DNA of 64,000 bases. Source: Eledone cirrhosa (lineage: Eukaryota). This document shows, one piece after another, positions 7,201 through 64,000 of the stretch. How positions within the stretch are numbered: position 1 is the first letter of the stretch; each line of letters opens with the position of its first letter. Where the stretch lies: assembly GCA_964016885.1 (NCBI GenBank), contig OZ024743.1:315580001-315644000 (forward strand). Reading direction: 5' to 3'. The notes below the pieces were generated by a model. That model saw only the letters and a program-made list of their open reading frames with translations, searched no databases and was not told the origin of the DNA. A program made the translations under genes and the position numbers.

Positions 7201-7255
<55 letters not shown>

Positions 7256-7368: not shown

Positions 7369-7445
<77 letters not shown>

Positions 7446-7550
7446 TATTGAAGTTTCCGTTGAAAATTGAAAAAGTCATAGGAGTGAAGAGTGCTCTATG
7501 TAAGTTACAGAGCTAAATTTAATGTATAATAAACAATACAATATAATTAC

Positions 7551-7616
7551 CTCATTACCAGAGGTTTCCCGAATAAGACGAATACAAGAAACGTCCTCAT
7601 TCGTTCGTCAGACAAA
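7551..7616 (-). ncRNA. Type I hammerhead ribozyme, possibly an inverted pseudo-LTR of the adjacent PLE
   Basis: Minus strand: TTTGT-CTGACGA-ACGAATGAGGACG...CGTCTTATTCGG-GAAAC-CTCTG-GTA-ATGAG; good stem II, weak GU-rich stem I. Confidence 0.65.
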
Positions 7617-7744
7617 GCAATTTAAAACATAGTGAAATATTTGAAAAATTTCCTCAAGAAAGGCAAAAGTTTAACGGGCAAAAAAAATATATAAATAAAA
7701 GTAATAAAAGTACTCTAACCCTTTTCAATCTAAACTATCTCACG

Positions 7745-11488: not shown

Positions 11489-11603
11489 ACAGAATAATAA
11501 TAAAACGAATTACAGGATGGTTTGTTGTAAACGGATGTTCAATTATACGTACGGGATTCGGTCGTATCAGCAATCAATACAGCGTGGTATATATATATAT
11601 ATC

Positions 11604-12264
11604 AAAGGTATATATTGAGTTAGAAACTCAAAATAGTCTCTTACAATAAAATAGCTCAAGGAAAGAGATTTTTCCGAGCAGTGTATTATAATTGAATATA
11701 AAAGAGAGATAAACACAGACATATACATATATGTGTTCAAATCGTAAGGGACAAGATTCGCTAAGGTGAAAAAGATGCTAACTATGGACAATAGGGTTTG
11801 CCAGACTCAATTTAAGAATAAATCAAGAAAATAAATACAAACCGGAATTGTGGTAACTACCAAATCACCCAGACAGCGTCTGGCGATGCTGTTTCGCAAT
11901 CCAATTGTGAAGAGATTTACCAATTTTTATTGCTCATCAGTAGGTGAAAAATTAGTAAACTCCTCACTTCTAAGTATATCAGAAAACTGAATAGTGTGCA
12001 TATATACAATAAAGCACGTGGTATCAGAACCTAACGTGTCTCACAAACTCATACCACTAAAATAGCAGCCAAGTTTACTCGACATTTAAATTAGCTCAAC
12101 AAATTAACGGAGGCGAATATATAAAAGGTATATATTGAGTTAGAAACTCATACTAGTCTCTTACAATAAAATAGCTCTAGGAAAGAGATTTTTCCGAGCC
12201 ATGTATTATAATTGAATATAAAAGAGAGATAAACACAGACATATACATATATATGTTCAGATCG
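11604..12264 (-). mobile_element. Non-coding HHR mini-element, 520-bp period with ~140-bp terminal direct repeat (retrozyme-like)
   Basis: Direct repeat 11604-11744 / 12124-12264 with a central HHR; no recognisable ORF; starts next to (TA)n. Confidence 0.7.
11866..11946 (-). ncRNA. Canonical type I hammerhead ribozyme
   Basis: Minus strand: CACCTA-CTGATGA-GCAAT...ATTGC-GAAACAGC-ATCGCCAGAC-GCTGTC-TGGGTG; all three stems pair, intact core, GUC site. Confidence 0.88.
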
Positions 12265-12370
12265 AGAGCCACAGCAGACAACTGAAGAGAGGATCTATCC
12301 TTTGTATTTTCCTTATATTTCAAAACACTTATTTTTAGTAACCTCACAGTACCTTGTCCCTTCTAAATAA

Positions 12371-16072: not shown

Positions 16073-19000
16073 CTACAGAACAATGTAGAGAGAAGGCCCA
16101 TTTACACGGGCCATTCTCGCTTCTTTCACCCACCTTTCATAAAACTGTCTGGGACCAAGCACTTCTCTCTCCATCCTGATTCTTCTTCCGAAGTGGTATC
16201 GGAAGAAGTAAACCAGGTGATGGCCGGAGAGAAAGTCACCCGACCTCAGACCTTTCAGGCGCGTCCACCACACAACCTCTTTCATCATGGCTATTACGCA
16301 CAGAAAGACCGCCTCTGCTTCATTTCTGAAGGGAGGAGGCGGCTTGATGTTCACCACAGACTCGGCGGTTAATCGAATCGGCGCCACACGCGACAGCAGT
16401 CGTTCGACGTAGCCCCACAGATCGGCAACGCCCGGGCAGTGTACCAGTGCATGCGCAACGGTTTCCTCGTCGCGCACGCATCTGGGACAGATCTTTTTCG
16501 CGGGATCCCTGCCCGGGCGCCCGTGTCTGTAGAGCTTTTCTCGAACGGGCAGAGCCCCCCGGTAACACTGCCAGGCTAGGGACCTCTGGAAGTTGTCCAT
16601 GGGTCCCGGGCCGAAAGTTCTACCGAACAGGCTGGCCAGTTCGTCCTCCTCCATGCCTAGCGACTCTCCAAGGGTGTCGTCGCCCCTGCTAGCCACCAAC
16701 CCTCTATAGAATGTCGAGGTGGATTCTCCACTGACAGTCGGGTCCGCTTGCCAGATAGCCGTGAGCGCCTGGGCACACTCAGTGTGCCAGTTGCCCAGTT
16801 TTCTCGGTCTTTGCTTCACCCAGGATTGCAGTTCGGTGAGCGAGACGAGCTGTGGGAAGGCTCGCCTCACAAACGGGGCCCACACCGGCTGACCGTTGAG
16901 GAATACCTGTAGATGCCGTAGCCTCAATGCGTGCCTACGCATCAACAGCCACGGCATACCCAGCCCTCCTTTCGAAGGGTGCTGGCAGCAGATGGATCTC
17001 CTCACCATGGGAGGCCGCTTCTTCCAGAGGAACTGGAAGAGCATGCGTTCTATGATGGTGAGCTTTTCCTTGGGGCAAGGCACGACGGTCAGGCGGTAGT
17101 AGATGACGGACGCTATGTAAGCGTTCGTCACCTCCGCCCGACCTTTCAGTGATAGTTTGCACTTGGCCCACTTCTGGGTCAGCGCAAACACCCTGCTCGT
17201 CACCTCGCCCCAATTCTTCTCCACCTGGAGGTCCGGTCCGAACCAGACCCCGAGCAGCTTCACCGGGCCCTCCGTCCACCGCCCGACGACACCGTCTAAC
17301 GGCATCGGTTTGCCCCTCCACGTTCCGAGTTGCAAACCGACTGACTTGTCCTGGTTCAGCTTAGCCCCCGTCAGCCTTTCGTATTCCTCCAGTAGGGTGG
17401 CGATCGCCCCGATTTCCGAGGCGTCCGCCACCATTACTGTTACGTCGTCGGCATAGGCCGAGACCGCTTTGTGCAATCCCGGTTCCAGGGGTATGCCCCG
17501 CAGCAACTCCAACTTCCGCAGCAGTGGCTCGAGAGTCAATACGTACAGAAGGGAGGAGAGGGGGCACCCCTGTCTGATGGATCGGGTGATTTGAAACGGC
17601 TCCGAGAGGTAGCCGTTTACTTTAATCCTAGAGTAGATGTTGCCACTGTGCATGGCAGAAATCCAGCCCCTGAAAACGGGTCCGAAGCCCGCCGCCGCTA
17701 GCACCGCATCCAGGTAACCATGGTCGACCCTATCGAACGCCTTAGATTGATCCAAGTTGATCAGGGCCCCACCAAAGCCGGGTTCGTAGCCAACCCTCTC
17801 TATGATGTATCGCATGAGGTGGAGGTTGTCGTGAATGGACCTGGACGGGATAGCGCATGTCTGCGCGTCTCCCACCAAACCACCCACCACAAGCGCCAAC
17901 CTCTTCGCCAACACCTTGGCCAAAATCTGTAACTCTGCATTCAGCAGAGTTATGGGCCTAAAGTTACTTAAGTCGTCCCCCTTGCTCTCGTCCTTCCTCA
18001 CTAGCGTGACCACGCCCTTGGTCACAGAACAGGGAATTCTCCCGTTCTGTTGCCAGTTGCAATAGACAGCCTCGAGGAGTTCGGAGAACAAGACCGGCAT
18101 AGCTAAATAAAGTTCGTATGGTAGACCATCGAGACCCGGGGATTTGCGTCTGCTGCATTGGCTGAGCGCTTCCCCGATTTCAGTGGCTGTGATTGGCCCT
18201 TCGCAGCACTCCGCTTCGCCGCTCGAAAGACGCGGTAGACCGTCGAGGTATGGACCGAAGTCCACATCCCCGTCCGGCCCCCCGCCACCTCCGAACAGTC
18301 GAGCAAAGTGCCTTTGAAAGGTCTCGCACATTCGCTCAGGTTCAAGGATCACCCGTCCATCCTGGTCTCGCAAAGACCGAATGGTGGATTTAATCCCACT
18401 CTTGGCTTCTGTCACGCGGGCCCAGCTAACAGCTTTGGTCCCCTCGTTTCCTAAAGCACGTATTTTACTTCGGACAACGCAGCCTTCGTGCTTCGCGTCA
18501 AAGAACTGGCTCAATGCCGTTCTCGTCGCTAACACTCTGGCTACGTCTCCGCTCCTAATCGCCTCTTCTAGTTTATCTGTTAACTCCCTTTCCCTCCTAT
18601 TTCTATTCGCCGCTAGTTCCTTACTGTAACCTATCGAACTTACTCTAATCTCTCTCTTTAGAGATATCCACCACCTACTGTTGACGATCGCTCCCGTCAA
18701 CCGCATCTTAACTAAGCTACTAATCCGGTTTCTGTAATCTTTCTTTGTCGGTAAGGACAAGTTCATCTTCCAGTAACCGGGACCCTGTCTATGCGTTCTA
18801 TCAAGGTTGACCACGCAGGTCACTAATTTGTGATCTGAATAGCCAACCATGATCAGTTCTGGACAACTAAATACGTCCCTATCCTTACTCCTAACCAAAA
18901 ACCTATCTAGGTACGATCTAGATTGTCCACTGCGGTTTGCCCAGGTCCAGGTTGGCGCAGTTGGACAATCTAGTCGAAATCTATCGACCAGGTCGAATCG

Positions 19001-19502
19001 ATCGAGTAACCCCTTGAGGCTGCTACACCCCCCTCTATCGGGACATGCCCCTGCATAGTCCCAACGCGCATCTAGGATTCCATTCCAGTCCCCCACTAAA
19101 AGCAGGGAACGCGACGTTCCTAGAAAAGTCTCCAGACGTTGGAAGAAGTCGGCTCTCTCCGCCCCGAAGGGAGCATAAAGACCGACCAGTCTGAAAGCCC
19201 CGCCTTCACCACCTCCGACGTCCAGCACCAGTAATCGACCCCCCGGGTCCGAGTGAACAATCTGTACGTCGAGAGTCAGACGTTTATCCAGCAGTACGGC
19301 AACTCCCCCCCCCGCCTCCGGGTTGACAGAGAGATGCGTGCATCTCAAAGTCATCGAAGGCGGGCGCCAGCTGTCTCACGCTGCTGATCCGACTCTCGCA
19401 AACAACCATCACATCTATACTTTGTGACCTGAGGTCACTTAGAAGCTTTGCTTGCTTCCAAGCTGAGCTCAGGCCACGCGCGTTCAAACAGCCAACTCTC
19501 AA
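16073..19502 (-). CDS. ORF2: APE endonuclease + reverse transcriptase + C-terminal Cys/His motif; one +1 frameshift in a G9 run (19305-19313)
   Basis: CLNARGL, LYAP, GDWN, YLDRF, SDH, PGYWKMN, SPGLDG, FRPITLLN, DQSKAFDRVDH, RQGCPLS, YADD, GGLG, CPRC..ETVAHALVHC. Confidence 0.93.
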
Positions 19503-19507
19503 TTGAT

Positions 19508-21343
19508 CTATTTTGGTGTTGAAAGTGAAGAAAGAAAAGCACTTACCTCTCCGGGTTGCGTAATTTCCATGGCATCAGGTGTGTTGGGTGGAGGGATGTT
19601 TTGTGGTGGTGTGGGGGTACACGTGTGTGGTGGGGTTGGGGTATTTGGAGTTGTGTCAGGGAGAGGGGCGGTTATGGGGAAATCTTTCAAGAGGACGCGA
19701 TTCAACGGTTTTAAACAGGGGGGGCTCACGTCCCGTCTAAATTGTTCTTTTAAGGAACGATAAAGGTCCAGAGGGACCTTTATCATTTTTAAATGGGTGA
19801 AGTTCTCTGTTGAGATAAAGTTTGGCCCTTCGGTCTGCACCATAGGGTTATTGTTTATTAATTTAACCAGTTTTTTGTTTTCTTTATTTATATATGTGTA
19901 TTGCAACGTCTTTTTTTGTGATGCTGTCAATGTTTCGGAGAGGGGAGGCGCAGATTTATTTTTGTTTGTTGAGGGTGGGGTGTTTTTGATTGGAGTTGGT
20001 GTTTGTGTGTGGGTTATTTGTGGTGTGCTGGGTGTGTGTTTTCTTTTTTTTCTTTTAACTTGTCTGAAGGCTTCTCCTCCTTCTTCTTCAGAAGTTGGGG
20101 GAAACTCTTCAGCGCTAGGTGGGAGGGACGTGTTGTGTGGTTGTTTTTTTTTTGCGGGAGGGGTAGATTTGTTACTGTTTTTTTTATTATTTGTTTGGAA
20201 TGGGTTTTGTGGTGGTGGTGGTGGTAATGTTTGTGTCGTGCTTGTGGTTGGTAATGGTGGTGGTGATGTTTGTGTTGTGGTTGGTGGTGGTGATTTTTGT
20301 GTCGTGCTTGTGTTTGGTGCTGGTGGTGGTGATGTTTGTGTTGTGTTTGTGGTTGGTGGTGTCTGTATTTTGTTTGCTGTGTGTGGTATTAGTGTATTTT
20401 TGGAGGTGGGTGGTGCTGGTGTACTGTTTGTGGTGGGTGTGGGCAATAGTCCTTTTTGGGGGATACGTTTCGGGCAGTTAGCCTTAACGTGTCCCCTTTC
20501 CATGCATAAATAGCATGCTGGTCTTCTCCCCTCTACAATTATGTCTATTGGGGTAAGGTCATCCAGCCAGATGCGATCCGGGATTTGTGCTATTCTTTCG
20601 GGCCTCATTTGGACTAGTATGTCGAGGCCCATTCCCAGGAACGCATCTCCAGTTGCCTTCCCCATTGACAGCATAGTGTCTTCGCCCATATCAATGAAGC
20701 CAGCAATAGCCCACCAGAAGTCCATTGTGGGCAGCATTGTTTTTACTTTTACCCTCTGTGTTCTTCTACCCATGTAGGAGGGGTAGAAGCTATATGTTGT
20801 CGACGAGAGTGGGCTTAGGGAAAGCTGAACCGCCGTTTCTTTGTCTCTTGTTAGGACCGAAATGCTGCCATAGAGTCGGTCCTTTCGTATGAAGAGAATA
20901 TTCTTCATATAGTCTTTTAGGACTAACTCTATTTCCATTTGGCTGGGCTGTGCTGGCTTTCTTGACTGGTTTAGTATAGTTCTGTATATAACTGTGTTTT
21001 CTGCTCTGGCTTTCTTGAATTCTGGGGGGGAGTTAATGGAAAACATTCCGTTTTCCCCCAAAACAATATGTTTCTTTGCTTCGGCCAGTTTTTCTCTGGC
21101 GGCAGTTAGGTCAATTGGTGTGTATGTAATGGATTGCTTTGTTTTCTGGGCGAAAGTTGCCCTGTCGTTATTTGTATTATTTTCTGTTTGTTTGTTTTCT
21201 GTTTGCTCATTTTCCTTAACATTTGTTTTTTCATTTTGTTTGTTTGTTTCAATGTCTAATTTTGTTGTAATTATTTTTTGTTCTTCAGACTTGGGGGGCG
21301 TGGCAGAGCTAATGGCAGACATGTCTGCCATCTTTTCCGCCAT
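19508..21343 (-). CDS. ORF1: gag-like nucleic-acid-binding protein with zinc knuckle and Pro/Thr-rich region
   Basis: Open ~611 aa from ATG 21343; EGRRPACYLCMERGHVKANC (CX2CX4HX4C); homologous to the ORF1 remnant of copy B. Confidence 0.88.
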   Translation of the reverse strand: MAEKMADMSAISSATPPKSEEQKIITTKLDIETNKQNEKTNVKENEQTENKQTENNTNNDRATFAQKTKQSITYTPIDLTAAREKLAEAKKHIVLGENGMFSINSPPEFKKARAENTVIYRTILNQSRKPAQPSQMEIELVLKDYMKNILFIRKDRLYGSISVLTRDKETAVQLSLSPLSSTTYSFYPSYMGRRTQRVKVKTMLPTMDFWWAIAGFIDMGEDTMLSMGKATGDAFLGMGLDILVQMRPERIAQIPDRIWLDDLTPIDIIVEGRRPACYLCMERGHVKANCPKRIPQKGLLPTPTTNSTPAPPTSKNTLIPHTANKIQTPPTTNTTQTSPPPAPNTSTTQKSPPPTTTQTSPPPLPTTSTTQTLPPPPPQNPFQTNNKKNSNKSTPPAKKKQPHNTSLPPSAEEFPPTSEEEGGEAFRQVKRKKRKHTPSTPQITHTQTPTPIKNTPPSTNKNKSAPPLSETLTASQKKTLQYTYINKENKKLVKLINNNPMVQTEGPNFISTENFTHLKMIKVPLDLYRSLKEQFRRDVSPPCLKPLNRVLLKDFPITAPLPDTTPNTPTPPHTCTPTPPQNIPPPNTPDAMEITQPGEVSAFLSSLSTPK

Positions 21344-21570
21344 GCTGCCAAGAAAGAAATTTTTCGGCAAAAATAGATATTTATTTTACCCCCTAAAAAG
21401 GGGGTAAATGCAAAAATGTTTCCCTAAATAACAGGGGTTAGTGTTCCAAATGTGTTGCACTAAAAAATTTATCCGGTACTTACAATAGTAAGGGTAAATC
21501 CCGATGGAATAGCGGAGCCGATGCGAAGCGTGTCTTACTCTATCAAGATAGATAGATAGATAGATAGATA

Positions 21571-24500
21571 AATTTATTTATTTATTTGCCACAAGGGCGC
21601 ACAAGAAAAGGGGACAATACAAAGACACATGCCGGAGATTTTACATACAGTTGTGTAAAAATATTATTAAAACAAACAAATTTAACAATCCAAATCCCCA
21701 GTAGGGGGGAGGCACCACAAATGGGTTGTTTAATACCCCATCGATAGAACAACCCTCAACTTCAGGAGCGTGTTGTGCAAGTGATCCTTTCTTCCTTTTG
21801 CACTGTTCTTCAACCTACATGTTTATATACAGAGAAGGCCCAATCACTCGACCCATTTTTGCTACATTCACCCACCTTTCAGTAAATTTACTGGGATGCA
21901 TTGCTTCTCTCGCCAATCTGACTCTCCTTCTAAAGTGGTACCTAAAGAATGGAATGAGTTGTTGTCTGGAGAGAAAGGCATCTGTCCTCAGTCCTCTCAA
22001 TCTCGTCCACCATATAACCTCTTTCACCATAGCAACAATACAGAGGAAAACCGCCTCTCTTTCGTTTTTGAAAAAAGTTGGCGGTTTGATCCTTACTATG
22101 GACTCGGCAGTCAACTGGATTTGTCTCATACGCGACAGCAGTTGTTCTGCGTAGTTCCACAAGTCAGTTACGCCCGGGCAGTGTACTATTGCGTGCAAGA
22201 GGGTTTCAATGTCCGGCTCGCATCTTGAACACGTCCTCTTGGAAGGATCCCTGTCGGGGCGTCCGTACCTGTAGATCTTGTCTCGAACTGGTAGAGCTCC
22301 TCGGTAGCACTGCCAGGCCAGGGACCTCTGGAATTTGTCCATAGGTCCCGGGCGGAAAGTCCTACACAAGCAGACTGGCAGCTCATCGTCTCCTACGCCC
22401 AGAGTCTCTCTGTGCGCGTCGTTGCCCTTGTAACGTACTAACCCTCTATAGAATGACGAAGTGGAGTCTCCACTGATTGCTGTGCCCGCTTGACAGAGGA
22501 ATGTGAGCGCCTGAGCACATACAATGTGCCAGGCGCCCATCTTCTTCGGTCTCCGCTTGACCCAGGACTGCAGCTCCGTCACCGAGACAAGTTGCGGGAA
22601 GGCCTGTCTCAATAACGGTGCCCACACCGGTTGGTCAGTGAGGAATACCTGGAGATGCCGTAGCCTCAGCGCATGTTGCGCATTATCAGCTTTCCGTTGA
22701 AAGGGTGCTGACAGCAGACGGATCTCGTCACCAGTGGAGCCTGCTTCTTCCAAAAGAACTGGAAGAGCACGCGTTCCATCTTGGTGAGGTGTTCACCGGG
22801 ACATGGCATGACGGTTAAGCGGTAGTAGATGACGGACGCTATGAAAGTGTTCGCCACCTCCGCTCGGCCTTTCAAGGATAGTTTGCACTCTGTCCACTTC
22901 TGGGTGAGCGCATATACCTTGGCCGTGACCTCGTTCCAGTTTTTCTCCACCTGGAGGTCCGGACCGAACCAGACCCCGAGCAATTTCACCGGTCCTTCCG
23001 TCCAGCGTCCGACGACGCTGTCAGACGGCAACGGTTTTCCTCTCCACGTTCCGAGTTGCCATCCGACAGACTTGTCCGGATTCAGCTTTGCTCCTGTGAG
23101 CCTTTCGTATTCCTGCAGTAAGTTGCCGATCGCCCCGATTTCCGAAGTTTTCGACACCATTACTGTCATGTCGTCGGCAGTCCCGTTTCAAAACAGGATG
23201 CCCGCAGTAGTGGCTCTCGAATCAGTAGGTACAGAATGGAGGAGACAGGGCATCCCAGTCGAATGGAACACGTGATTTCGAACGGCTCCAATAGGTAGCC
23301 GTTCACCTTGACCGTCGAGTAGATGTTGGTGTGCATTGCTTTGATCCAGCCTCTGAAGACGGGTCCGAAACCGGCTGCCTTGAGAACAGCTTCCAAGTAT
23401 CGATGGTCAACCCTATCGAACGCCTTAGACTGATCTAAATTGATCAGAGCCCGACCAAAACCTGGTTTAGACGCCATCCTCTTTATGATGTATCGCATGA
23501 GGTGGAGGTTGTCGTGTATGGATCTGATCGGGATTGCACACGTTTGCGGTTTCCCTATCAGGTTCTCGACGACAAGCGTTAAAGATTTTGGCCAAGAGTT
23601 GGGCCTAAAGTTGCTTAGTTCGTCCCCCTTGTTCTCGTCTTTCCTGATCAGCGTTACTACGCCCCTTCCTGGAAAACTGGAAACTCTTCCGTTCTGCTGC
23701 CAGAGAACAAGTCCGGCATGCGTATGTAAAACTCATCGGGTAGACCATCTAGACCGGGTGATATGCGTCCCGTATCTCAGTGGTTGTGATCGGTCTTTCG
23801 CAGAACTCGGCGTCCATGCTCGAGAGTTGCGGCAGGCCGTCGAGATATGAACCGAAGTCCATTGCCCCGTTCTGCTCGAACAGTTGTGCAAAGTGCCGCT
23901 GAAAGGTTGTGCACATACGCTTGGAGCCAAGTAGCACGCGTCCGTTTTGGTCTTTCAAAGACCGAATCGTGGACTTGTTGCCACTTTTCGCCTCTGCCAC
24001 TCGAGCCCAGCTAACATCTTTTGCTCCGTCGTTTCCGAGAGCACGTAATTTACTTCTGACCACGCAGCCTTCGTGTTTCGCATCGAAGAACTGGTCTAGT
24101 GCGGTTCTCGTTGCTAGCACTCTAGCTGCGTTGGCACTCCTAAGTGCTTCCTCTACTCTGGATACTAGTTATGTTTCTGTTTTGTTTTTCTCTAAGGCTA
24201 GTTCTTTGCTAAAAGCTATCGATTCTACTCTAACTGCTCTCTTGAAAGAGTACCATCTATTGTTGACGATGGCTCCCGTCAACTGTTGCTTAACTAATCT
24301 ACTTACCCGTTCACTGTAGGTTTTACGGGTCGCTAACGACATGTTCAGCTTCCAATATCCGGTTCCTTGTCTATGTGTTCTATCATGGTTGACTATGCAG
24401 GTGACTAGTTTGTGGTCTGAATAGGCAACCATGAACATTTGTGAACAGCTTAACATCTTCTTGTCTCTCTCTCTCTAATAAAGAACCTATCTAAATACGA

Positions 24501-34111: not shown

Positions 34112-34764
34112 GCGACGAAACTATTCTGCACGCACTCGTCTAGTGTCCGTGCATAACTGACTTGCGGAGTTATGTCGAACAGCTGTTTTCGCGTGTAGAA
34201 CGGATCCGGCTATCGACCGAGTCCATAGTGAAGATCGACCCGCCGCATTCTGTTTGCCAGGAAGGGCAGGCAATTTTCCTCTGTCTGGTGGCAGTAGCGA
34301 AAGAGGTTGTATGGTGGAGCTGGTTGAAAGGACTCAAGACACACAATTATCTCTTTGGCCAATCTCTCATCAACCTTTTCAAGTTTCACTTGGAAAGGAT
34401 GGTGAGGCGGGGAGAGAGAAGTGCTGCACCCCAGTACATTTGCTGAAAGGTGGGTGAATGTGGCGAGAATGGCCCGTGTGAGTGGGCCTACTCTGATCAT
34501 GCGCCTGTAGGTGGGTAAATGTGAGGAGGAGAGGGGTGCCTTTCCCGGGTGCTCTCGAAGCGTCGGGTCGTTCAGGATTGGTGGCGTACCTGAGTGAACC
34601 CTGGGTGGTCATACCCCCTATTGGGGAATTTTCCATGTTGTATTTTTATTGTAATTTTGTTATTGTTACTTATATTCTTTACACGTTGTATATGTAAACC
34701 ACCACTGTCCCTGCCTTTTGTATTGTCTCCTATATGTCAGCCCTTGTGGCCAATAAATGAAACT
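34112..34764 (+). mobile_element. 5'-truncated Tx1-like copy E in a (TAT)/(TAG)n site
   Basis: DETILHALV, LRSYVEQLFSRVERIRLSTESIVKIDPP, VAKEVVWW; tail GCCCTTGTGGCCAATAAATGAAAC; TATTATTT(T)AGTAGTAGTAGT on both flanks (TSD-like). Confidence 0.88.
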
Positions 34765-34828: not shown

Positions 34829-34840
34829 TGCTGTTATTGT

Positions 34841-35070
34841 TGTGGATTAGCAGAATCATTAGAGAATCGGACAAAATGCTCGGCGGCATTTGTTCTGGCT
34901 CTTTGTGTACTGAGTTCAAATCCCATCATGGTCCACTTTTCCTTTCATACTTCCCGAGTCGATAAAATAAAGTATCATTGAAGACCTGGGGGTGGTGTCA
35001 TTGATTTATCCGCCACTCCACCTACAGCGAATTACTGGCATTCTACCTAAACCTGCAATGCTTATTGTTA
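34841..35070 (+). mobile_element. Degenerate tRNA-derived SINE (4691 family)
   Basis: GCAGAATCATTAG..GAGTTCAAATCC..CCTTTCAT..GTCGATAAAATAAAGTA. Confidence 0.75.
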
Positions 35071-35239: not shown

Positions 35240-35321
<82 letters not shown>

Positions 35322-35383
35322 ATATATATATACACATATATATATGTATGTACATATATATATATACATATATATATACACAT

Positions 35384-35430
<47 letters not shown>

Positions 35431-35725
35431 TATGCATGTATACGTACATACATATATGTATACAGACGTACAGTAGCATGCACATATATATATATATATA
35501 CATATATATATACATATGCATACAGGTACACATACATATATGCACGTATCAGTTTAGCGGCGCTTATTATAACGTCGCTTTGTTCGTTTGTAAACAAACT
35601 GAACAGCCTGAATTGGTATGCCTGACCGATTTAACTCACTCAATATGCAAATTAGGCTGCTCAGCCGTTAATTTTCATAAGGAAAGTATATACTTTCGAA
35701 CGTTCAACTATCTGGCAGATGGGTA

Positions 35726-35774
35726 AACGGTGCTGATGATAGCTAGCTAACAAGCTTGAAACTAGTACATCGTT
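35726..35774 (+). ncRNA. Type I hammerhead ribozyme, unit 1
   Basis: AACGGTG-CTGATGA-TAGCT..AGCTT-GAAAC-TA-GTA-CATCGTT; 7-bp stem I, palindromic stem III ACTAGT; predicted cut after 35767. Confidence 0.88.
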
Positions 35775-36197
35775 CCTGTGTCAGTGTTGAACAAAAAGGT
35801 GACGTGGTTGCCTTAACACCGTATGGCATAAATTCAGGCTGTTCAGTTTGTTTACAAACGAACAAAGCGACGTTATAATAAGCGCCGCTAAACTGATACG
35901 TGCATATATGTATGTGTACCTGTATGCATATGTATATATGTATATATATATATATATGTGCATGCTACTGTACGTCTGTATACATATATGTATGTACGTA
36001 TACATGCATACTTACATTTAAGTAAGTGCCATACTAAGAGTGAGAAATGAAATTTCGTTTTCATTTTGTTTCAATTTATCCTTTTCGGTATGCCTGACCG
36101 ATTTAACTCACTCAATATGCAAATTAGGCTGCTCAGCCGTTAATTTTCATAAGGAAAGTATATACTTTCGAACGTTCAACTATCTGGCAGATGGGTA

Positions 36198-36246
36198 AAC
36201 GGTGCTGATGATAGCTAGCTAACAAGCTTGAAACTAGTACATCGTT
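36198..36246 (+). ncRNA. Type I hammerhead ribozyme, unit 2
   Basis: Identical to unit 1; predicted cut after 36239. Confidence 0.88.
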
Positions 36247-36675
36247 CCTGTGTCAGTGTTGAACAAAAAGGTGACGTGGTTGCCTTAACACCGTATGGCA
36301 TAAATTCAGGCTGTTCAGTTTGTTTACAAACGAACAAAGCGACGTTATAATAAGCGCCGCTAAACTGATACGTGCATATATGTATGTGTACCTGTATGCA
36401 TATGTATATATATATATGTATATATATATATAAATGTGCATGCTACTGTACGTCTGTATACATATATGTATGTACGTATACATGCATACTTACATTTAAG
36501 TAAGTGCCATACTAAGAGTGAGAAATGAAATTTCGTTTTCATTTTGTTTCAATTTATCCTTTTCGGTATGCCTGACCGATTTAACTCACTCAATATGCAA
36601 ATTAGGCTGCTCAGCCGTTAATTTTCATAAGGAAAGTATATACTTTCGAACGTTCAACTATCTGGCAGATGGGTA

Positions 36676-36724
36676 AACGGTGCTGATGATAGCTAGCTAA
36701 CAAGCTTGAAACTAGTACATCGTT
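36676..36724 (+). ncRNA. Type I hammerhead ribozyme, unit 3
   Basis: Identical to unit 1; predicted cut after 36717. Confidence 0.88.
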
Positions 36725-37151
36725 CCTGTGTCAGTGTTGAACAAAAAGGTGACGTGGTTGCCTTAACACCGTATGGCATAAATTCAGGCTGTTCAGTTTG
36801 TTTACAAACGAACAAAGCGACGTTATAATAAGCGCCGCTAAACTGATACGTGCATATATGTATGTGTACCTGTATGCATATGTATATATATATGTATATA
36901 TATATATATATGTGCATGCTACTGTACGTCTGTATACATATATGTATGTACGTATACATGCATACTTACATTTAAGTAAGTGCCATACTAAGAGTGAGAA
37001 ATGAAATTTCGTTTTCATTTTGTTTCAATTTATCCTTTTCGGTATGCCTGACCGATTTAACTCACTCAATATGCAAATTAGGCTGCTCAGCTGTTAATTT
37101 TCATAAGGAAAGTATATACTTTCGAACGTTCAACTATCTGGCAGATGGGTA

Positions 37152-37196
37152 AACGGTGCTGATGATAGCTAACAAGCTTGAAACTAGTACATCGTT
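37152..37196 (+). ncRNA. Type I hammerhead ribozyme, unit 4
   Basis: Stem II AGCT-AACA-AGCT, 4 nt shorter than in units 1-3; predicted cut after 37189. Confidence 0.88.
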
Positions 37197-37629
37197 CCTG
37201 TGTCAGTGTTGAACAAAAAGGTGACGTGGTTGCCTTAACACCGTATGGCATAAATTCAGGCTGTTCAGTTTGTTTACAAACGAACAAAGCGACGTTATAA
37301 TAAGCGCCGCTAAACTGATACGTGCATATATGTATGTGTACCTGTATGCATATGTATATATATATGTATATATATATATATATATATATGTGCATGCTAC
37401 TGTACGTCTGTATACATATATGTATGTACGTATACATGCATACTTACATTTAAGTAAGTGCCATACTAAGAGTGAGAAATGAAATTTCGTTTTCATTTTG
37501 TTTCAATTTATCCTTTTCGGTATGCCTGGCCGATTTAACTCACTCAATATGCAAATTAGGCTGCTCAGCCGTTAATTTTCATAAGGAAAGTATATACTTT
37601 CGAACGTTCAACTATCTGGCAGATGGGTA

Positions 37630-37674
37630 AACGGTGCTGATGATAGCTAACAAGCTTGAAACTAGTACATCGTT
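37630..37674 (+). ncRNA. Type I hammerhead ribozyme, unit 5
   Basis: As unit 4; predicted cut after 37667. Confidence 0.88.
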
Positions 37675-37973
37675 CCTGTGTCAGTGTTGAACAAAAAGGT
37701 GACGTGGTTGCCTTAACACCGTATGGCATAAATTCAGGCTGTTCAGTTTGTTTACAAACGAACAAAGCGACGTTATAATAAGCGCCGCTAAACTGATACG
37801 TGCATATATGTATGTGTACCTGTATGCATATGTATATATATATGTATATATATATATATGTGCATGCTACTGTACGTCTGTATACATATATGTATGTACG
37901 TATACATGCATACTTACATTTAAGTAAGTGCCATACTAAGAGTGAGAAATGAAATTTCGTTTTCATTTTGTTT

Positions 37974-38006
<33 letters not shown>

Positions 38007-38144
38007 CAGTGCTGGTTAATCATGCAATCAACCGACTTGGGCGTGATCAGACGTAAGTACTCTACGTCGTGGGTACCATAAGGTATTAACTAAATGATCT
38101 CAGACGCAGTGTCGATATTGTAAAACAAAGAGGGAGACAACAGT

Positions 38145-38195
38145 ATCACGTATACATCTTCAGTTTATTTAATGAACTGAAGATGTATACGTGAT
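38145..38195. repeat. Perfect 21-bp inverted repeat
   Basis: ATCACGTATACATCTTCAGTT / AACTGAAGATGTATACGTGAT. Confidence 0.9.
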
Positions 38196-38220
38196 GCCTT
38201 CTCTCTTCATGCATGTGTAT

Positions 38221-45853: not shown

Positions 45854-45898
<45 letters not shown>

Positions 45899-45903
<5 letters not shown>

Positions 45904-48558
45904 CACCATACCCCCTGACCTCCCCCTCTCCGCACCTGAGCGCTCACTCCTTAGTAGAGGCCTTCGCTTCATACCCCACACTCCGCTCAGCGACGAGTTC
46001 CGCACCCGAACGGAAGTCGAGCGATTCGTGCGACGCACTAAGCTACAGGCACATTTCGGTCAAACGCCACCGGCTCCGGACGCCCCAGACCCGTTTCTCG
46101 CCCTGGGCCGACGACCATCTTCTTGGACGCCGGCCCCAGGGCAATTTAGCACCCTGGACGCCTTCGTCGAAACCAGCCGTAGCGCAGTAAATCGTTTCGA
46201 CTTCCGCCACCGTTCCAAACGGCACAACATCTCACGGGGCGAACTCCTCGCTCTCCGCTCCCTCCGTAGCCGAGATGACATCGTCATCAAACCGGCGGAC
46301 AAGGGAGGCGCCGTGGTGGTGTCGCGCGCGGACCTCTACAAGGCCGAAGCCCTCAGGCAGCTCTGTAACCCCCTCTTTTACCGCCCTCTACCCTCCGATC
46401 CCACCCCCCTCTACCAACAGCAAGTCTCCTCCACCATCAAAGACCTTATCGCCTCCTCCCTCCTCCCCCCACCGCTTCCCACCTCATCGTCCGCACACCC
46501 CGCACCCCCACCATCTACTTCCTCCCCAAACTGCACAAACCCGACAACCCCGGCCGTCCCATCGTCTCCGCTTGCAACTGCCCCACCGAACTCATCTCCG
46601 CCTTTCTCGACTCCCTCCTCGCCCCCCTTGTCACCACCCTCCCCTCCCACATCTCTGACACCAACCACGCCCTGCGCCTTTTCGACTCCTTCACCTACCT
46701 ACCCGGCCCTCAGCCATTCCTCTTCACCCTAGACATCAAGTCCCTCTATACCGTCATCCCCCACGCCGACGGCCTTCGCGCCCTCAAACACTACCTCGAC
46801 CTTCGCCCCTCCCCCATTCCCTCCACCCCCACCCTCCTTCGCCTCGCCGAGCTGGTCCTCACCCTAAATTGTTTCTCCTTCTCGGGTGAGTTTTACCAAC
46901 AGGTCACGGGGGTAGCCATGGGCACAAGAATGGGCCCGAACTATGCCAACCTTTTTGTTGGCCATGTTGAGGCCCAAATCTTTGCCCAGTACACCGGCCC
47001 CACGCCCGAACTGTACGGTCGTTACATTGACGACTGTATCGGAGCCACGACCCTCACCCGAGTACAGCTCGACTCCTTTCTCTCCTTCTTCTGCTCCTTC
47101 CACCCCTCCCTCCACTTCACCACCTCTATCTCCACCACCCACGTCCACTTCTTGGACATCTCCGTCGCCTTCGACCCCTCCCACCACTCCCTCGTCACCT
47201 CCGCCTTCTTCAAACCCACCGACTCCCACTCTTACCTCGACTTCACCTCTTCCCACCCCACCCACACTAAACTCTCCATTCCCTACTCCCAACTTCTCAG
47301 GATCCGCCGCCTCTGTAGCCGAGATGCTGACTTCGAGTCCCAAGCCCTTTCCCTAGTCAGCCATTTCATCCGCAGAGGTTACCCCCCCTCTCTCGTCCAC
47401 ACCGCTCTCACCCGCGCCCGTGCTATCTCCCGCTCTACCACCCTCACCCCACGCCACCGCACACCCACCCACCGTCTCCCCTTCCCCATCACCTACCACC
47501 CCTCCACCGCACCATCCGCCGCCTCTTCCGACACCTCCAGTCCGACCCCTCCACCTCCCACATCTTCCCAACCCCACCACTCCCCTCCTTCATACGCGCA
47601 CGCAATCTCCGCACCCTCCTCGTCCACAGCTCCCTACCCCCCAACCCACGCTCCGTTCCCCCCCCCCGGTTCCTTCCCCTGTTCTAGGCCCCGCTGCAAC
47701 ACCTGTCCCCACATCACCAACACCACCACCTTCCAGGGTCCCAACGGCCACCCTCTCTCGGTCCGGCATGCCTTCCGCTGCACCTCCTCCAACCTAGTCT
47801 ACGGACTTCGTTGCACGAGGTGCAGCGCGACTTATGTCGGACAGACGGGACGCCGCCTGGAGGACCGAGTCACGGAGCACCTCCGGGACATTCGTCTCGG
47901 GGGCAGTTCCCCCATCGTCCGCCACTTTGGTGGCCCTGGACACTCCACACACCATCTCACAGTCTGTGGTCTACTCCAGTGCCACGGAACACCCGCCCAT
48001 CGCCTCACGGTCGAACAACGTACTATCTTCATCTTACAGACCCCCCCCCCCCGGCCTGAACTCCCCACCCTTATTCCTTTAGCGTTCGACCGCCCCCTTC
48101 CCCCACTTATCCCCCACTAACACCACTAACACACCCCTCCTTTTCACCGCCCACCCCACACTAACAATACTAACACCCCCACTCCACCCCTCATCTAACC
48201 ACCCTTCCCCAACTAACATACTAACATCCCTTCCCTCCCCTCTTCTCCTCCTCCCCCCTCCTTATCACACGCACACATTTACACCACCCACCCCACACGC
48301 AACTAACATCACTAACACCCTCCAACCCCACGCACACGTACCCACACACCCTCGTACACCACCAACTCTACACACCCTACCCCCACTAACCCCCACTCAC
48401 ACCTGCATTCCACCCCTCCCCACCTCCCGTCTACTAACACCCACTAACACCTCCTCACCAAACTACACACACACCAGTACACCACACTCCCTCCATAGAA
48501 CCACACACACCCTTCTCTCCCCACTCCACACTCACACATCCCACTAACACCCCTACTA

Positions 48559-48605
<47 letters not shown>

Positions 48606-49560
48606 CCTCACTCCAACTCTCACACCTACCCATCCTCGCCTCCCTACCATTCCGCTGACTGCTGCTATGCCCTTCCGACCACTGTCTCAGCACCCACTGA
48701 CCACAGCACTTCCACTGCTGACCACTTCCTGTTGCGCGCGCACCCCACATCTCTCCTCTTCCGACCACCGCTTCTTGGATTACCCACACGCGTTTTGACT
48801 TCCAACCAAAATCTCCATACATCCGTGTAACTTACCACTTTTCAACCATCCTCTAACACCATCACCTATATAACTCACCCACACACACATCCCAAAACAA
48901 ATTTTTTTATCCACACGCCACCCACACCCACAACACGCTTAAACCACCACACACACGTGCTTCCCACCACATATTTACACCCTCAGCCCCCTGATTCCTC
49001 TCCCCCCACCCCCTATCCACACACGCACAGACCCTCCGACACACAAAAACACCCCCCACACACACCTTCCTGAACATGCAACCCCGTTCTTCCCCCAACC
49101 CTCACTTTCACATACACACACACACACACACGCACACCTAACCACACACACCACCTTCAGCCCTCCCCGCTCGGACACCCCGTCTCCCTCTCCCCACTCC
49201 ACCCGCCTCCACCTCTACTCACCCCACACCCTTCCACCACCTGTTACCCCCCTTTTAATTTCAGTTTATTTTGATCATGCCTTTATTTTTAAATGTTCTC
49301 ATTCCTTGTATTTTGATCATGCTTTATTTTTATTTATTATTTATTATATTTTTGTCTTTATTTGTTAATTTTTAATTTTTCATTCGCACCGTTTCCTTTC
49401 GCTATATGTCTCTCCACCACTCCCCTACACACCTTTTGAACTCTTACCTGAAGAAGGGCTTATGCCCGAAACGTCGTCCTCCACCTACCCCCCACTCTCC
49501 TGAGCGTGAATCTAATAAACATTTGTCGTACTGCCTCTCTGTTCTGTCCCTGTTCAATTT
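45899..49560 (+). mobile_element. Penelope-like element (Neptune-like), RT + Cys linker + GIY-YIG, with 3' pseudo-LTR
   Basis: LLSRGLRFIP, IKPADKGGAVV, YFLPKLHKPDNPGRPIVS, DIKSLYTVIPH, GVAMGTRMGPNYANLF, RYIDD, FLDI, KPTD, SIPYSQLLRIRRLCS, PCSRPRCNTC, CTSSNLVYGLRC..YVGQTGR..EH; frameshifts near 46465 and 47510; (TA)n flanks. Confidence 0.93.
49444..49480 (+). ncRNA. Minimal hammerhead ribozyme of the PLE pseudo-LTR
   Basis: CTGAAGA-AGGGC-TTAT-GCCC-GAAAC-GTC; stem III reduced to the palindrome ACGT; stem I not evident. Confidence 0.72.
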
Positions 49561-49692
49561 TTTATTATATATATATATATACATGTATATATATATACAA
49601 TTCAAGGAATGACAAGACAAACGCAGAGATGCAAAAATACACACACACGCACGCACACATACACGCGCTCACACACACACATACACAGGCAC

Positions 49693-52652: not shown

Positions 52653-54150
52653 CTAGCAGATTTACCCGGCGTTGCTTGAGGTTTGAAATTATGCTAAGAA
52701 TATAGAGCTAGGAAGTAAAAGAAGAACATTATTTGTCCCAACCTGTCAAAATAAGCAGAAGTCTTCAATAATTAATGCAAACGAATATTTAGTGCAATCT
52801 TTGTACACATAAAACTATGCTGATAATGAAGGAAAACACTGAACAGGATGTAGTTATACAAATGATTAAAGACAATACACGTTGCAAATCTGTGAAAAAC
52901 AGGCAGTTTTGCTAAAGTACAAAAAGTTGTAATGAAAGCAGAGTTGTATACAAACAAAAAGACAATGAGAGTAGAATAACAGAAAATCTATTCTTTGAAA
53001 GCATCCTTTGCTGTGTATGGTTAAATGTTTAACTTATAATCCAAAATATCCTGCATGACATATTCATTGGTATGTTTTGTAATGAGTAAGGTGAAGTCAA
53101 GGCAGAGCTGTAATAAGTTTTTTTGTTAACACTAAAGCACTTCAGGATAGACGATATTCCTTGTTTTTCTTTTCGGAACAAACGCAAAGAGATTATCTCG
53201 ACTGCCAACTCGTGAGCAGGGAACGTAGAATTGTCCGTGCGAAAAGCAAGTTTCATCCAAGTGAATTCCAGCGACGGACAGAGTTTGACCTTGCGACTTG
53301 TTTATGGACATCGCAAAGGCAACACGAAGGGGAAATAGGGTTCGGCGAAAGGAGAAGGGAGTATCCACGCCTGATGTAGTCAGGCTAATTTTTGTTATTA
53401 TTACATCCTCGCCTTTACCATATCCGGATAGAATGGTAGCGTCAATACTAACTGGAGACAGTTTTTTAACCACAATGCGTGTACCATTGCATAGGTTTGG
53501 AGGAGTGATATTTCTCAGCAAAATAACTGGCGTTTCCTCTTTCAGAACCAATGTATTAGGAGGTAAACCAGGAGGATTTAAAGAATTTAGAAATTCAACT
53601 GGATAATTGACCGCATCCTGTGGATCACATACAGTATCAAGAGATTTATATATCCATGGACATCCAGGAAGAAGCTGAAGAAGCTGATCATTAATACAGC
53701 TAACCGTGATATTTTGGGATGCAAGAATGGCTCTTTCACATAGCCAATCAAGATTCGTATAGTTATCACGCAAGTTCAGGAATACACTTGCCTTGAGATC
53801 ATCGACAGTTTCAACTACATTGCAGATGTGATCAATTGCTATGTGTCCATCTGTATCCATAACATCACTGCAATCCCGTATGTCTTGCAAAGGTTATCTC
53901 CCTTTTTAATAAGGATTGTCAATAAAGTTTGTTATCTCCCTTGCATCAATTTTTCTACCGATAATTTTGATATCGATGTTTTATTGCTCAACATGGGTCG
54001 ATTTGAAAAATGTTTGTGATGTGACAATGTTAGCTACCTGTGCAACGTGCACAGACAATTTGGTCAAATTCTGTTGGTAATTGTGAAATCCTTAAGCATG
54101 CAAAGTTGTACACAGACATACACACATCCTCGCTTTTATATATATAAAGA
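52653..54150 (-). mobile_element. Internally deleted Helitron with both termini
   Basis: Minus strand begins A|TCTTTATATATATAAAAG and ends GCAACGCCGGGTAAATCTG-CTAG|T, the canonical TC...CTAG in an AT site; carries the helicase C-terminus. Confidence 0.9.
53132..53890 (-). pseudogene. PIF1-like helicase C-terminal part of Helitron RepHel
   Basis: WLCERAILA, YPVEFLNSLNPPGLPP, LLRNITPPNLCNGTR, FPLRVAFAMSINKSQGQTL, FSHGQFYV..SRV, TRNIVYPEVL. Confidence 0.92.
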
Positions 54151-59700: not shown

Positions 59701-59889
59701 CCCATACAGGAGAGTGAATGAGAGTTGTTTTGACACACACAAACGCAAACAAACCACACACACACACAAACACACACACACCACATACACTACAGCATAC
59801 GCTCACCACAAAACACGCCGCCACCACTACAGCATGCACTACCATCTCAGTATACACCGCCACGTCATCATACACCACCACCTTAGAAC

Positions 59890-62800
59890 ACACACCACCA
59901 CCACCTTAGAACACACACCACCACATCACACCACCACCACATCACATACACCACCACCACATCACACCACCACCACATCACATACACCACCACCACATCA
60001 CACTACCACCACCACATCACACCACCACCACATCACACTACCACCACATCACATACACCACCACCACATCACACCACCAGCACATCACATACACCACCAC
60101 CACATCACACCACCACCACATCACATACACCACCACCACATCACACTACCACCACATCACACCACCACCACATCACATACACCACCACCACATCACACCA
60201 CCACCACATCACACTACAACCACCACATCACACCACCACTACATCACACCACCACCACATCACATACACCACTACATCACACCACCACCACATCACACTA
60301 CCACCACCACATCACACCATCACCACATCACACCACCACCACATCACACCATCACCACATCACATACAGCACCACCACGTCACACCACCACCACATCACA
60401 TACATCACCACCACATCACACCACCACCACATCACATGCACCACCACCACATCACACTACCACCACATCACATACACCACCACCACATCACACCACCACC
60501 ACATCACATACACCACCACCACATCACACCACCACCACATCACATACACCACCACCACATCACACCACCACCACATCACATACACCACCACCACATCACA
60601 TACACCACCACATCACACCACCACCACATCACATACACCACCACCACATCACACTACCACCACATCACATACACCACCACCACATCACACCACCACCACA
60701 TCACATACACCACCACCACATCACACCACCACCACATCACATACACCACCACCACATCACACCACCACCACATCACATACACCACCACCACATCACACCA
60801 CCACCACATCACATACACCACCACCACATCACACCATCACCACATCACACCACCACCACATCACACCATCACCACATCACATACACCACCACCACATCAC
60901 ACCACCACCACATCACATACACCACCACCACATCACACCATCACCACATCACACCACCACCACATCACACCATCACCACATCACATACACCACCACCACA
61001 TCACATACACCACCACCACATCACATACACCACCACCACATCACATACACCAGCACCACATCACATACACCACCACATCACACCACCACCACATCACATA
61101 CACCACCACCACATCACACTACCACCACATCACATACACCACCACCACATCACACCACCACCACATCACGTACACCACCACATCACACCACCACCACATC
61201 ACATACACCACCACCACATCACACCATCACCACATCACATACACCACCACCACATCACACTACCACCACATCACACTACCACCACATCACATACACCACC
61301 ACCACATCACACCACCACCACATCACACTACCACCACATCACACCACCACCACATCACATACACCACCACCACATCACACTACCACCACATCACACTACC
61401 ACCACATCACACTACCACCACATCACACTACCACCACATCACACCACCACCACATCACATACACCACCACCACATCACACTACCACCACATCACATACAC
61501 CACCACCACATCACACTACCACCACATCACATACACCACCACCACATTACACTACCACCACATCACATACACCACCACCACATCACACCACCACCACATC
61601 ACACTACCACCACATCACACCACCACCACATCACACTACCACCACATCACACCACCACCACATCACATACACCACCACCACATCACACTACCACCACATC
61701 ACACTACCACCACATCACACTACCACCACATCACACTACCACCACATCACACCACCACCACATCACATACACCACCACCACATCACACTACCACCACATC
61801 ACACTACCACCACATCACACTACCACCATATCACACCACCACCACATCACATACACCACCACCACATCACACCACCACCACATCACACTACCAACACATC
61901 ACACCACCACCACATCACATACACCACCACCACATCACACTACCACCACATCACACTACCACCACATCACACCACCACCACATCACATACACCACCACCA
62001 CATCACACCAGCACCACATCACATACACCACCACCACATCACACTACCACCACATCACATACACCACCTCCACATCACACCACCACCACATCACATACAC
62101 CACCACCACATCACACCACCACCACATCACATACACCACCACCACATCACACCACCACCACATCACATACACCACCACCACATCACACCACCACCACATC
62201 ACATACACCACCACCACATCACACCACCACCACATCACATACACCACCACCACATCACATACACCACCACCACATCACATACACCACCACCACATCACAC
62301 TACCACCACATCACACTACCACCACATCACACCACCACCACATCACATACACCACCACCACATCACACTACCACCACATCACACTACCACCACATCACAC
62401 TACCACCACATCACACTACCACCACATCACACTACCACCACATCACACTACCACCACATCACACCACCACCACATCACATACACCACCACCACATCACAC
62501 TACCACCACATCACACCACCACCACATCACACCACCACCACATCACATACACCACCACCACGTCACACTACCACCACATCACACTACCACCACATCACGT
62601 ACACCACCACCACATCACACTACCACCACATCACATACACCACCACCACATCACACTACCACCACATCACATACACCACCACATTACACCACCACCACAT
62701 CACATACACCACCACCACATCACATACACCACCACCACATCACATACACCACCACCACATCACATACACCACCACCACATCACATACACCACCACCACAT

Positions 62801-64000
62801 CACATACACCACCACCACATCACATACACCACCACCACATCACACCACCACCACATCACATACACCACCACATCACACCACCACATCACATACACCACCA
62901 CCACATCACATACACCACCACCACATCACACCACCACCACATCATATACACCACCACCACATCACACCACCACCACATCACGTACACCACCACCACATCA
63001 GACCACCACCACATCACACTACCACCACATCACACCACCACCACATCACACTACCACCACATCACACTACCACCACATCACACCACCACCACATCACATA
63101 CACCACCACCACATCACATACACCACCACCACATCACACCACCACCACATCACATACACCACCACATCACACCACCACCACATCACATACACCACCACCA
63201 CATCACATAAACCACCACCACATCACACCACCACCACATCACGTACACCACCACCACATCACACCACCACCACATCACACTACCACCACATCACACCACC
63301 ACCACATCACACTACCACCACATCACACCACCACCACATCACGTACACCACCACCACATCACATACACCACCACCACATCACATACACCACCACATCACA
63401 CCACCACCACATCACACCACCACCACATCACATACACCACCACCCCATCACACTACCACCACATCACACTACCACCACATCACACCACCACCACATCACA
63501 CTAACACCACATCACATACACCACCACCACATCACACTACCACCACATCACGTACACCACCACCACATCACACTACCACCACATCACATACACCACCACC
63601 ACATCACACTACCACCACATCACATACACCACCACCACATCACACTACCACCACATCACATACACCACCACATCACACCACCACCACATCACATTCACCA
63701 CCACCACATCACACCACCACCACATCACACCACCACCACATCACGTACACCACCACCACATCACACCACCACCACATCACATACACCACCACCACATCAC
63801 ACCACCACCACATCACACCACCACTACATCACATACACCACCACCACATCACACTACCACCACATCACAGACACCACCACCACATCACACTACCACCACA
63901 TCACATACACCACCACCACATCACACCACCACCACATCACATACACCACCACCACATCACACCACGACCACATCACACCACCACCACATCACATACACCA
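59890..64000. repeat. Satellite of 13-20-bp units ACC(ACC)nACATCAC(AT/ACT), running off the window end
   Basis: More than 4 kb of variants of ACCACCACCACATCACATAC. Confidence 0.97.

Follow-up and report, generated by a model that had tools for sequence, protein, structure and literature searches.

Which enzyme moves the retrozymes of animals, and whether it copies circles or linear multimers, are the questions on which a repeat family bears that we met in Eledone cirrhosa, as an array of five hammerhead-bearing units in a stretch of 64,000 nucleotides (contig OZ024743.1, positions 315,580,001 to 315,644,000; called the window from here on, in which all positions below are counted). A link between retrozymes and Penelope-like elements (PLEs) was proposed in 2020 and has since found support, through co-occurrence and trees, in work on vertebrates, three insects and a coral (10.64898/2026.07.22.740005); the available text of that work lists the mechanism of mobilisation as future work, and that of a review of 2020 states that no repeat motif points to an autonomous partner (PMC7761336). 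We consider it likely that the array is a non-autonomous, hammerhead-bearing tandem retroelement of the non-LTR retrozyme type that was inserted by the protein of a PLE.

An initial annotation, made from the letters of the window, had described a five-copy tandem array of a non-coding unit of about 475 bp, with an inverted piece of about 187 bp ahead of it and the whole sitting in (TA)n, all of which was borne out (Table 1). The five units of 472–478 bp lie head to tail between 35615 and 37977, the fifth being 11 nt short, and TRF returned a period of 478, 5.0 copies and 98% matches. The units had been called near-identical, which holds apart from differences within the TA tract and, elsewhere in the unit, two substitutions and a 4-nt indel. 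Their GC is 0.35–0.36, and their alignment gives a layout that is not LTR-like. No frame with reverse transcriptase (RT) and GIY-YIG was found in the array, and a 135-aa frame on the minus strand (37565–37972), the one frame of the array that was scanned, had no Pfam match.

Table 1. Features of the array and its flanks, in window coordinates.
Positions	Strand	Feature	Method
35242..35427	.	Microsatellite target on the left, a (TA)n/(CA)n composite that finishes with a pure TA run	
35428..35614	-	187-nt inverted piece, 5'-truncated, corresponding in reverse complement to unit columns 217-411	alignment
35615..35622	+	Inversion junction: two extra G, then TATGCC	
35615..36086	+	Unit 1, 472 bp; A at position 11 (A11), TAGC duplication	
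35645..35652	+	Octamer ATGCAAAT, present in every unit at position 31-38; may be a promoter element, or just an arm of a predicted hairpin	
35726..35774	+	Type I hammerhead, unit 1; predicted cut after 35767; loop 2 enlarged	descriptor, fold
36087..36564	+	Unit 2, 478 bp; A11, TAGC duplication	
36198..36246	+	Type I hammerhead, unit 2; predicted cut after 36239; loop 2 enlarged	descriptor
36565..37040	+	Unit 3, 476 bp; A11, TAGC duplication	
36676..36724	+	Type I hammerhead, unit 3; predicted cut after 36717; loop 2 enlarged	descriptor
37041..37518	+	Unit 4, 478 bp; A11, private T at position 52, without the duplication	
37152..37196	+	Type I hammerhead, unit 4; predicted cut after 37189	descriptor, weak Rfam match
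37519..37977	+	Unit 5, 459 bp, final 11 nt missing; G11, without the duplication	
37630..37674	+	Type I hammerhead, unit 5; predicted cut after 37667	descriptor, fold
37794..37906	+	TA-rich, microsatellite-derived long hairpin (coordinates of unit 5, found in every unit)	
37916..37977	+	One-sided 62-nt tail with two small predicted hairpins	
37978..38004	.	Right (TA)n target	

A type I descriptor found the hammerhead core and three helices in all five units, and the cut sites predicted earlier, with the monomers of 472, 478, 472 and 478 nt that they would release, agreed exactly. In the 64-kb window the descriptor returned eight motifs, the five of the array and three others, and in 30 of 30 block-shuffled windows none. 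Helix I (AACGGUG/CAUCGUU) is prolonged on its outer side, beyond a UAA internal loop, by a long irregular stem. The four pairs of helix II rest on a mismatch, U·U at 10.1/11.1, that the initial annotation does not mention; helix III (ACUAGU) has at most 2 bp around a 2-nt loop and is in effect one pair closed by the palindromic CUAG. The four extra bases of the TAGC duplication lie in loop 2 of units 1–3, where they should disturb the loop contact. The ribozyme had been called intact, which is right for the catalytic core; because of the U·U mismatch at helix II, the minimal helix III and, in units 1–3, the duplication, weak cleavage is predicted, and the ribozyme, though real, looks weak. The search with Infernal and Rfam Hammerhead_1 that had been suggested as a check gave no match, nothing in the window reaching the gathering score, and Hammerhead_HH9 matched units 4 and 5 only, with 18.5 bits against a cut-off of 52 (E = 1, or E = 0.023 in a 161-nt search). 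The miRNA matches returned by the Rfam search of the window are noise from the TA repeats. The ribozyme pattern was matched by no viral contig and at four places in metagenome contigs, for which BLAST showed no relation to the unit.

The layout is the canonical metazoan type I motif, which is described as tending to need a dimer (PMC4209133). Two retrozymes from the axolotl show what its peculiarities may cost (PMC7229834): HHR_Amex1, which as here has a 1-bp helix III with a palindromic loop, cleaves 6% per hour as a monomer, and HHR_Amex2, which as here has U·U at the base of helix II, cleaves 22% per hour, both doing better as dimers. Each of the two has one weakening feature, whereas the ribozyme of the array combines both, and does so in an invertebrate; efficient cleavage as a monomer is ascribed to most invertebrate type I motifs (PMC7761336). 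The architecture makes cleavage in dimeric form between adjacent units, as put forward in the initial annotation, plausible. When a three-unit transcript is folded, however, helix I forms within its own unit (p = 0.81) and the palindromes of different units do not pair (p = 0.0), so that this dimer is not predicted at equilibrium. The swapped dimer folds with −21 kcal/mol, compared with −15 kcal/mol for two monomers without helix III, and competes with co-folds of −21.7 and −28.7 kcal/mol. Among predicted frog dimers, one of nine cleaved (10.64898/2026.07.22.740005).

The family to which the array belongs was sought with unit 5 and its right flank as query, positions 37815–38012 being masked, in 4 of the 24 listed sequencing runs. 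In run X1, probably from the same species, 3540 of 17.1 million contigs matched the stretch and were 85–100% alike, 903 of them at least 99% and 237 less than 90%. The repeat is thus multi-copy and not a lone duplication at a single locus, a case that the initial annotation had kept in view; the number counts variant contigs rather than dispersed loci. Summed depth in X1 was 0.2–1.9 million over the unmasked unit compared with 10–32 over pieces of the flank, a difference that is not a copy number, since overlapping contigs inflate it, and that on a cautious reading indicates a high-copy family with thousands of copies. Over the 31 nt from the start of the core to the cut, only the free core position 7 and one base of loop 2 vary at 5% or more in X1, and the core positions of the ribozyme look conserved in the family. 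One X1 contig holds a variant of the head-to-tail junction (loose end at 37510), and in a loose-end consensus of 13 contigs the hairpin that follows the ribozyme is preserved, as read by eye, by other base pairs (AGCAAC/GTTGCT). Placed on the minimum-energy fold, which mispairs the ribozyme, 11 of 19 family variants are unpaired, one keeps its pair and seven break one.

In X10 (organism A, another sample, 88 million letters) an A at 37634, which turns a wobble of helix I into an A-U pair, makes up 76% of the depth, compared with 0.8% in X1, and the depth peaks over 37628–37723. The spectrum resembles that of an RNA library dominated by a rare subfamily, which in a run of unrecorded library type is at most a hint, contigs showing neither strand nor ends nor circles. 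None of the listed runs that hold words of the unit is on record as RNA. Words of unit 1 were found in 20 of the 24 listed runs, under 15 labels. Run X4 (organism B) gave one contig of 470 nt, with a depth of 7.1, two other letters and a 6-nt gap, a form that accounts for 8% of the depth in X1. Because a resident family would give many contigs, the simplest reading is trace carry-over, and horizontal transfer between species is not supported. The raw reads of X24 (organism D) held none in 12.8 million, which at about 1/100 of the run is too small a share to serve as a test. That the RNA also travels between species, an extension of the reading in which the RNA is circular, prompted by its words in runs under 14 other labels, is a remote prospect.

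By its sequence features the array is a putative non-LTR retrozyme. Like the metazoan members of this class (PMC7229834; 10.64898/2026.07.22.740005), it is built of non-coding tandem units with a type I hammerhead in each, has a GC below 50% and a high copy number, and lies in a genome with PLEs. The units are longer than the 170–400 nt of PMC7229834 and within the 51–972 nt of 10.64898/2026.07.22.740005; five of them are typical, 75% of the families in the latter work having at most seven. An internal TA-rich hairpin sets the array apart, and the available text of the two sources describes no inverted piece, tail, microsatellite target or cephalopod. Circles are reported for the retrozymes of PMC7229834, whereas the array is known from DNA sequence alone. 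In the literature we found neither a hammerhead repeat from a cephalopod, which repeat databases and the supplements of the two sources could list, nor a report of an inversion-plus-tail scar on a retrozyme array. The class is known already; this particular family we did not find described.

The ends of the array point to the enzyme. The inverted piece is equal, letter for letter, to the copy in unit 3 (36781–36967). Within the unit, GGCATA stands just before the point where the inverted piece ends; the TATGCC at the junction is its complement, which gives a microhomology of 6 nt; at least 6 nt are offered by 2 of 476 unit positions, and the one used is among them. On the right, the array stops 310 nt beyond the last cut, in a register other than that of the cut site, and the 62-nt tail is the stretch of unit that separates this right end from where the inverted piece starts. 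With (TA)n on both flanks, no target-site duplication can be read.

The published footprint of PLEs comprises partial tandems, an inverted 5'-truncated copy, a tail of 30–40 bp at one end and microsatellite targets, a CX2-5CxxC finger being proposed to mediate the target bias (10.1101/2021.04.23.441226). A PLE protein has been reported to cut and extend both strands and to initiate inside the RNA, at two nearby sites that have no homology to the target and whose intervening sequence forms the tail; in vitro, cleavage by the ribozyme is not needed and uncut RNA is the main substrate (PMC11167929). The ends of the array match this footprint, apart from a tail that at 62 nt is longer than the usual 30–40, and the scar reads as the joining, 3' end to 3' end, of two cDNAs whose primers lay on opposite strands. 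With insertions of Neptune, Naiad and Poseidon the array shares the tandem copies, the inverted 5'-truncated piece, the one-sided tail and the microsatellite target; it differs from them in the tail length, in having no frame and in a canonical instead of a minimal hammerhead. By simple arithmetic, the chance that two priming sites chosen independently in a 475-nt unit lie no more than 62 nt apart is about 13%, and one locus therefore gives PLE priming modest support.

A Neptune-like PLE lies 8 kb from the array, at about 45898–49566, also in (TA)n. Broken by a frameshift, it has an RT and a CX4CX2C finger, together with a domain that resembles GIY-YIG at E = 0.004, short of the Pfam threshold, and it shows that PLE-type enzymes existed in this genome. 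It carries its own minimal hammerhead core at 49448. A second PLE-like element at 7370–9600 abuts (TA)n as well. Between the unit or the tail and these two PLEs no significant similarity was found, the best local score being reached by 36% of shuffles, and a 3' end shared by the unit with the neighbouring PLE or with the second hammerhead element was not above shuffles either. Non-autonomous Chlamys elements (MRC1; Chlamydomonas), which are head-to-tail PLE derivatives, generally share their 3' end with the autonomous partner (10.1101/2021.04.23.441226), whereas no such sharing was found here with the two PLEs of the window. The window also holds a LINE frame (16073–19375) whose closest named relative is from Argonauta hians (67% identity). 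Positions 34830–35070 resemble what we take to be an octopus SINE, and an octopod host is likely on these grounds.

Could the unit be the terminal repeat (pLTR) of an autonomous PLE, and the array its truncated tandem leftovers rather than a member of an independent retrozyme family? PLE insertions do form tandem and inverted ends of this kind (10.1101/2021.04.23.441226), and 24 of 57 frog retrozyme families match PLE terminal repeats, 21 of 22 matched elements being PLEs (10.64898/2026.07.22.740005). We consider this origin quite unlikely. The five units break at one common point, a variant copy has the same head-to-tail junction, and the loose ends listed in X1 (12, with 100 more in existence) include no frame-like sequence. 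The ribozyme has canonical proportions (helix I of 6–7 bp, helix II of 4 bp), unlike the core at 49448, which is of the minimal PLE type with a helix II of 7–8 bp, a helix I of 4–5 bp and no helix III (PMC4209133).

For the retrozyme inserted by a PLE protein we propose the following course. At its start stands a family with many variant copies, whose arrays would be transcribed from the plus strand, the weak ribozyme leaving uncut multimers, monomers and perhaps circles. The endonuclease of a PLE would then cleave a (TA)n tract on both strands, and each 3' end so made would prime reverse transcription at an internal site of the RNA. Judged from the ends of the array, these two sites would lie 62 nt apart, the copy on the bottom strand running for about five units and that on the top strand for 187 nt. 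The two copies would have been joined via the 6-nt microhomology, of which the scar is seen, leaving the inverted piece and the one-sided tail. The array consists of two homogeneous blocks, which suggests that the template was not a single monomer.

A candidate internal promoter for the transcription step is a lead. The snRNA-type promoter of newt satellite 2 includes an octamer. The octamer of the unit, upstream of the ribozyme, recalls it as a candidate; noticed after the fact, it is present in 2.7% of 5000 shuffles. An snRNA-type promoter in the newt satellite and a Pol III promoter in a schistosome satellite are on record (PMC2220036), and retrozymes have been described as seemingly without promoters (PMC7761336). 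With the Schistosoma hammerhead satellite the array shares a hammerhead repeat and A-box- and B-box-like words, which stand at tRNA spacing in the unit; here the match is loose (9.1% of 5000 shuffles, likewise noticed after the fact), and T runs lie inside the unit. A TATA-like palindrome occupies unit positions 68–83. A tRNA origin of the unit was considered as well, and ARAGORN found nothing.

The nature of the template can be approached through the markers that distinguish the units (Table 1). These markers divide the array into two uniform blocks, whose single boundary lies in unit 4, somewhere from its position 12 to its position 125. Neither A11 nor the TAGC duplication is listed at 5% or more among the variants of X1, and the divergent loose-end consensus has G at position 11; going by the absent row and this one consensus, unit 5 probably carries the common state at both markers. 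The initial annotation had seen a young retrozyme copied by rolling reverse transcription of one circle by a PLE RT. The young multi-copy repeat and the PLE-type ends stand; one monomeric circular RNA, copied round five times, is very unlikely. Such a circle would suit the close likeness of the units, the ends that do not share the register of the cut site and a circular monomer fold with z between −6 and −9, and circles have been shown for retrozymes of coral, mussel and axolotl (PMC7229834). It is disfavoured because unit 5 lacks A11 and the TAGC duplication common to other units, so that identical errors would have to be repeated, in four units and in three, unless both markers arose after the insertion. 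Nor do the permuted ends need a circle, because the PLE protein initiates inside the RNA and uses uncut RNA in vitro (PMC11167929). Unit positions 1–280, without the TA hairpin, give just z −2.7, and much of the predicted circular-fold signal comes from this hairpin.

Three templates are then left to compare. A multimer read from a mixed source array is slightly favoured, at somewhat less than an even chance, because of the weak ribozyme and the preference for uncut RNA in vitro. A short insertion that later grew by unequal crossing-over is only a little less likely. A single change from one template to a second within unit 4, both of them possibly circles, is somewhat unlikely. Spelled out, a PLE would have primed from both strands of the (TA)n at two fixed sites on a circle made by the ribozyme, rolled for about 1.75 turns, switched inside unit 4 to a second, rare circle and gone on for three more turns, a sequence of events that we regard as unlikely.

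MITE- and Helentron-like elements have inverted repeats near their ends and an internal microsatellite. The array, with 187-bp inverted repeats near both ends and a microsatellite inside, resembles them, and its block structure is compatible with unequal crossing-over, so that it could be a DNA-level repeat of that sort, or a satellite spread by rolling circle of DNA, in which the hammerhead is a passenger. This is highly improbable: the inverted repeat derives from the unit itself, does not reach the right end and is joined by microhomology, no family-wide strand-changing joint is listed in the X1 contigs (37815–38012 masked), and the core positions look conserved. An assembly artefact, either a collapsed or expanded repeat or a fold-back chimera, is hardly conceivable: assemblers are indeed troubled by tandem and inverted structures (10.1101/2021.04.23.441226), the lengths of the TA tracts vary between units and none of the listed contigs spans the junctions, but ordered markers distinguish the units, the inversion is offset and joined by microhomology rather than a hairpin fold-back, and unit and flank are both present in run X1.

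The array is of value as a test case for the movement of retrozymes, not as a new class, and the surprise is moderate. A young high-copy family with a PLE scar and ordered unit markers makes both of the questions asked at the outset addressable from one assembly: end registers and tails across copies inform on the enzyme, and the order of markers within arrays on the template. The switch between two circles, if true, would be direct genomic evidence that retrozyme circles are the template of retrotransposition and PLEs the enzyme.

The second non-coding hammerhead element of the window carries 148-bp direct repeats, 520 bp apart and 95% alike, which flank its type I motif. Helix I of this motif has 7 bp and helix III is genuine; in the predicted minimum-energy fold of the element the ribozyme is not formed. 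The Neptune-like Penelope-like element (PLE), which has a very high C content, carries a reverse transcriptase (RT) region, a CX4CX2C finger and a GIY-YIG-like domain. RT-like and GIY-YIG-like motifs were also recognised by eye in the second, PLE-like set of frames, which gave no match in Pfam; beside these frames an inverted copy of 7373-7454 is present at 7159-7251.

The open LINE frame has its best named match (67%) in Argonauta hians, and the Pif1 helicase 2B fragment is probably the remnant of a Helitron. In the palindrome next to the array CTGAAGA is found on both strands.

Features of the window other than the hammerhead array (window positions)
Feature	Position	Strand	Remarks
PLE-like frame set, second	about 7370-9600	plus	broken; adjoins (TA)n
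Second non-coding hammerhead element	11597-12366	minus	sits in (TA)n; unrelated to array unit
Type I hammerhead core of second element	11940-11872	minus	single motif
LINE frame, open, 1100 aa	16073-19375	minus	endonuclease, RT, zf-RVT
Accompanies the LINE frame	19508-21385		
Broken LINE copies	21815-24474 and 34113-34536		
Near-perfect palindrome, 51 bp	38145-38195		immediately right of array
Neptune-like PLE	about 45898-49566	plus	5'-truncated, frameshifted; inside (TA)n
Minimal hammerhead core	49448		within Neptune-like PLE
Pif1 helicase 2B domain fragment	53132-53893	minus	
C-rich tandem repeat, 36 bp, 118 copies	59852-64000		>4 kb, reaches window end

Words of the array unit were also found in sequencing runs X4-X9 and X11-X20 under 14 other labels, including one wastewater metagenome, and are probably carry-over there. 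Run X4 (organism B) yielded one unit-length contig only, with a depth of 7.1.

Run X10, from another sample (organism A), was compared over 37508-38200, and the variant spectrum of the unit was unlike that in X1, a run probably from the same species as the window. In X10, the library type of which is not on record, A at 37634 amounted to 76% vs 0.8% in X1 and C at 37641 to 93% vs 36%. At 37577 and 37579 (unit positions 59 and 61), A and G account for roughly 50% of the depth of the family; this variant abolishes a T4 run and creates a second word resembling the octamer of the unit, a possible promoter element, and it could be relevant to Pol III read-through or to the hairpin.
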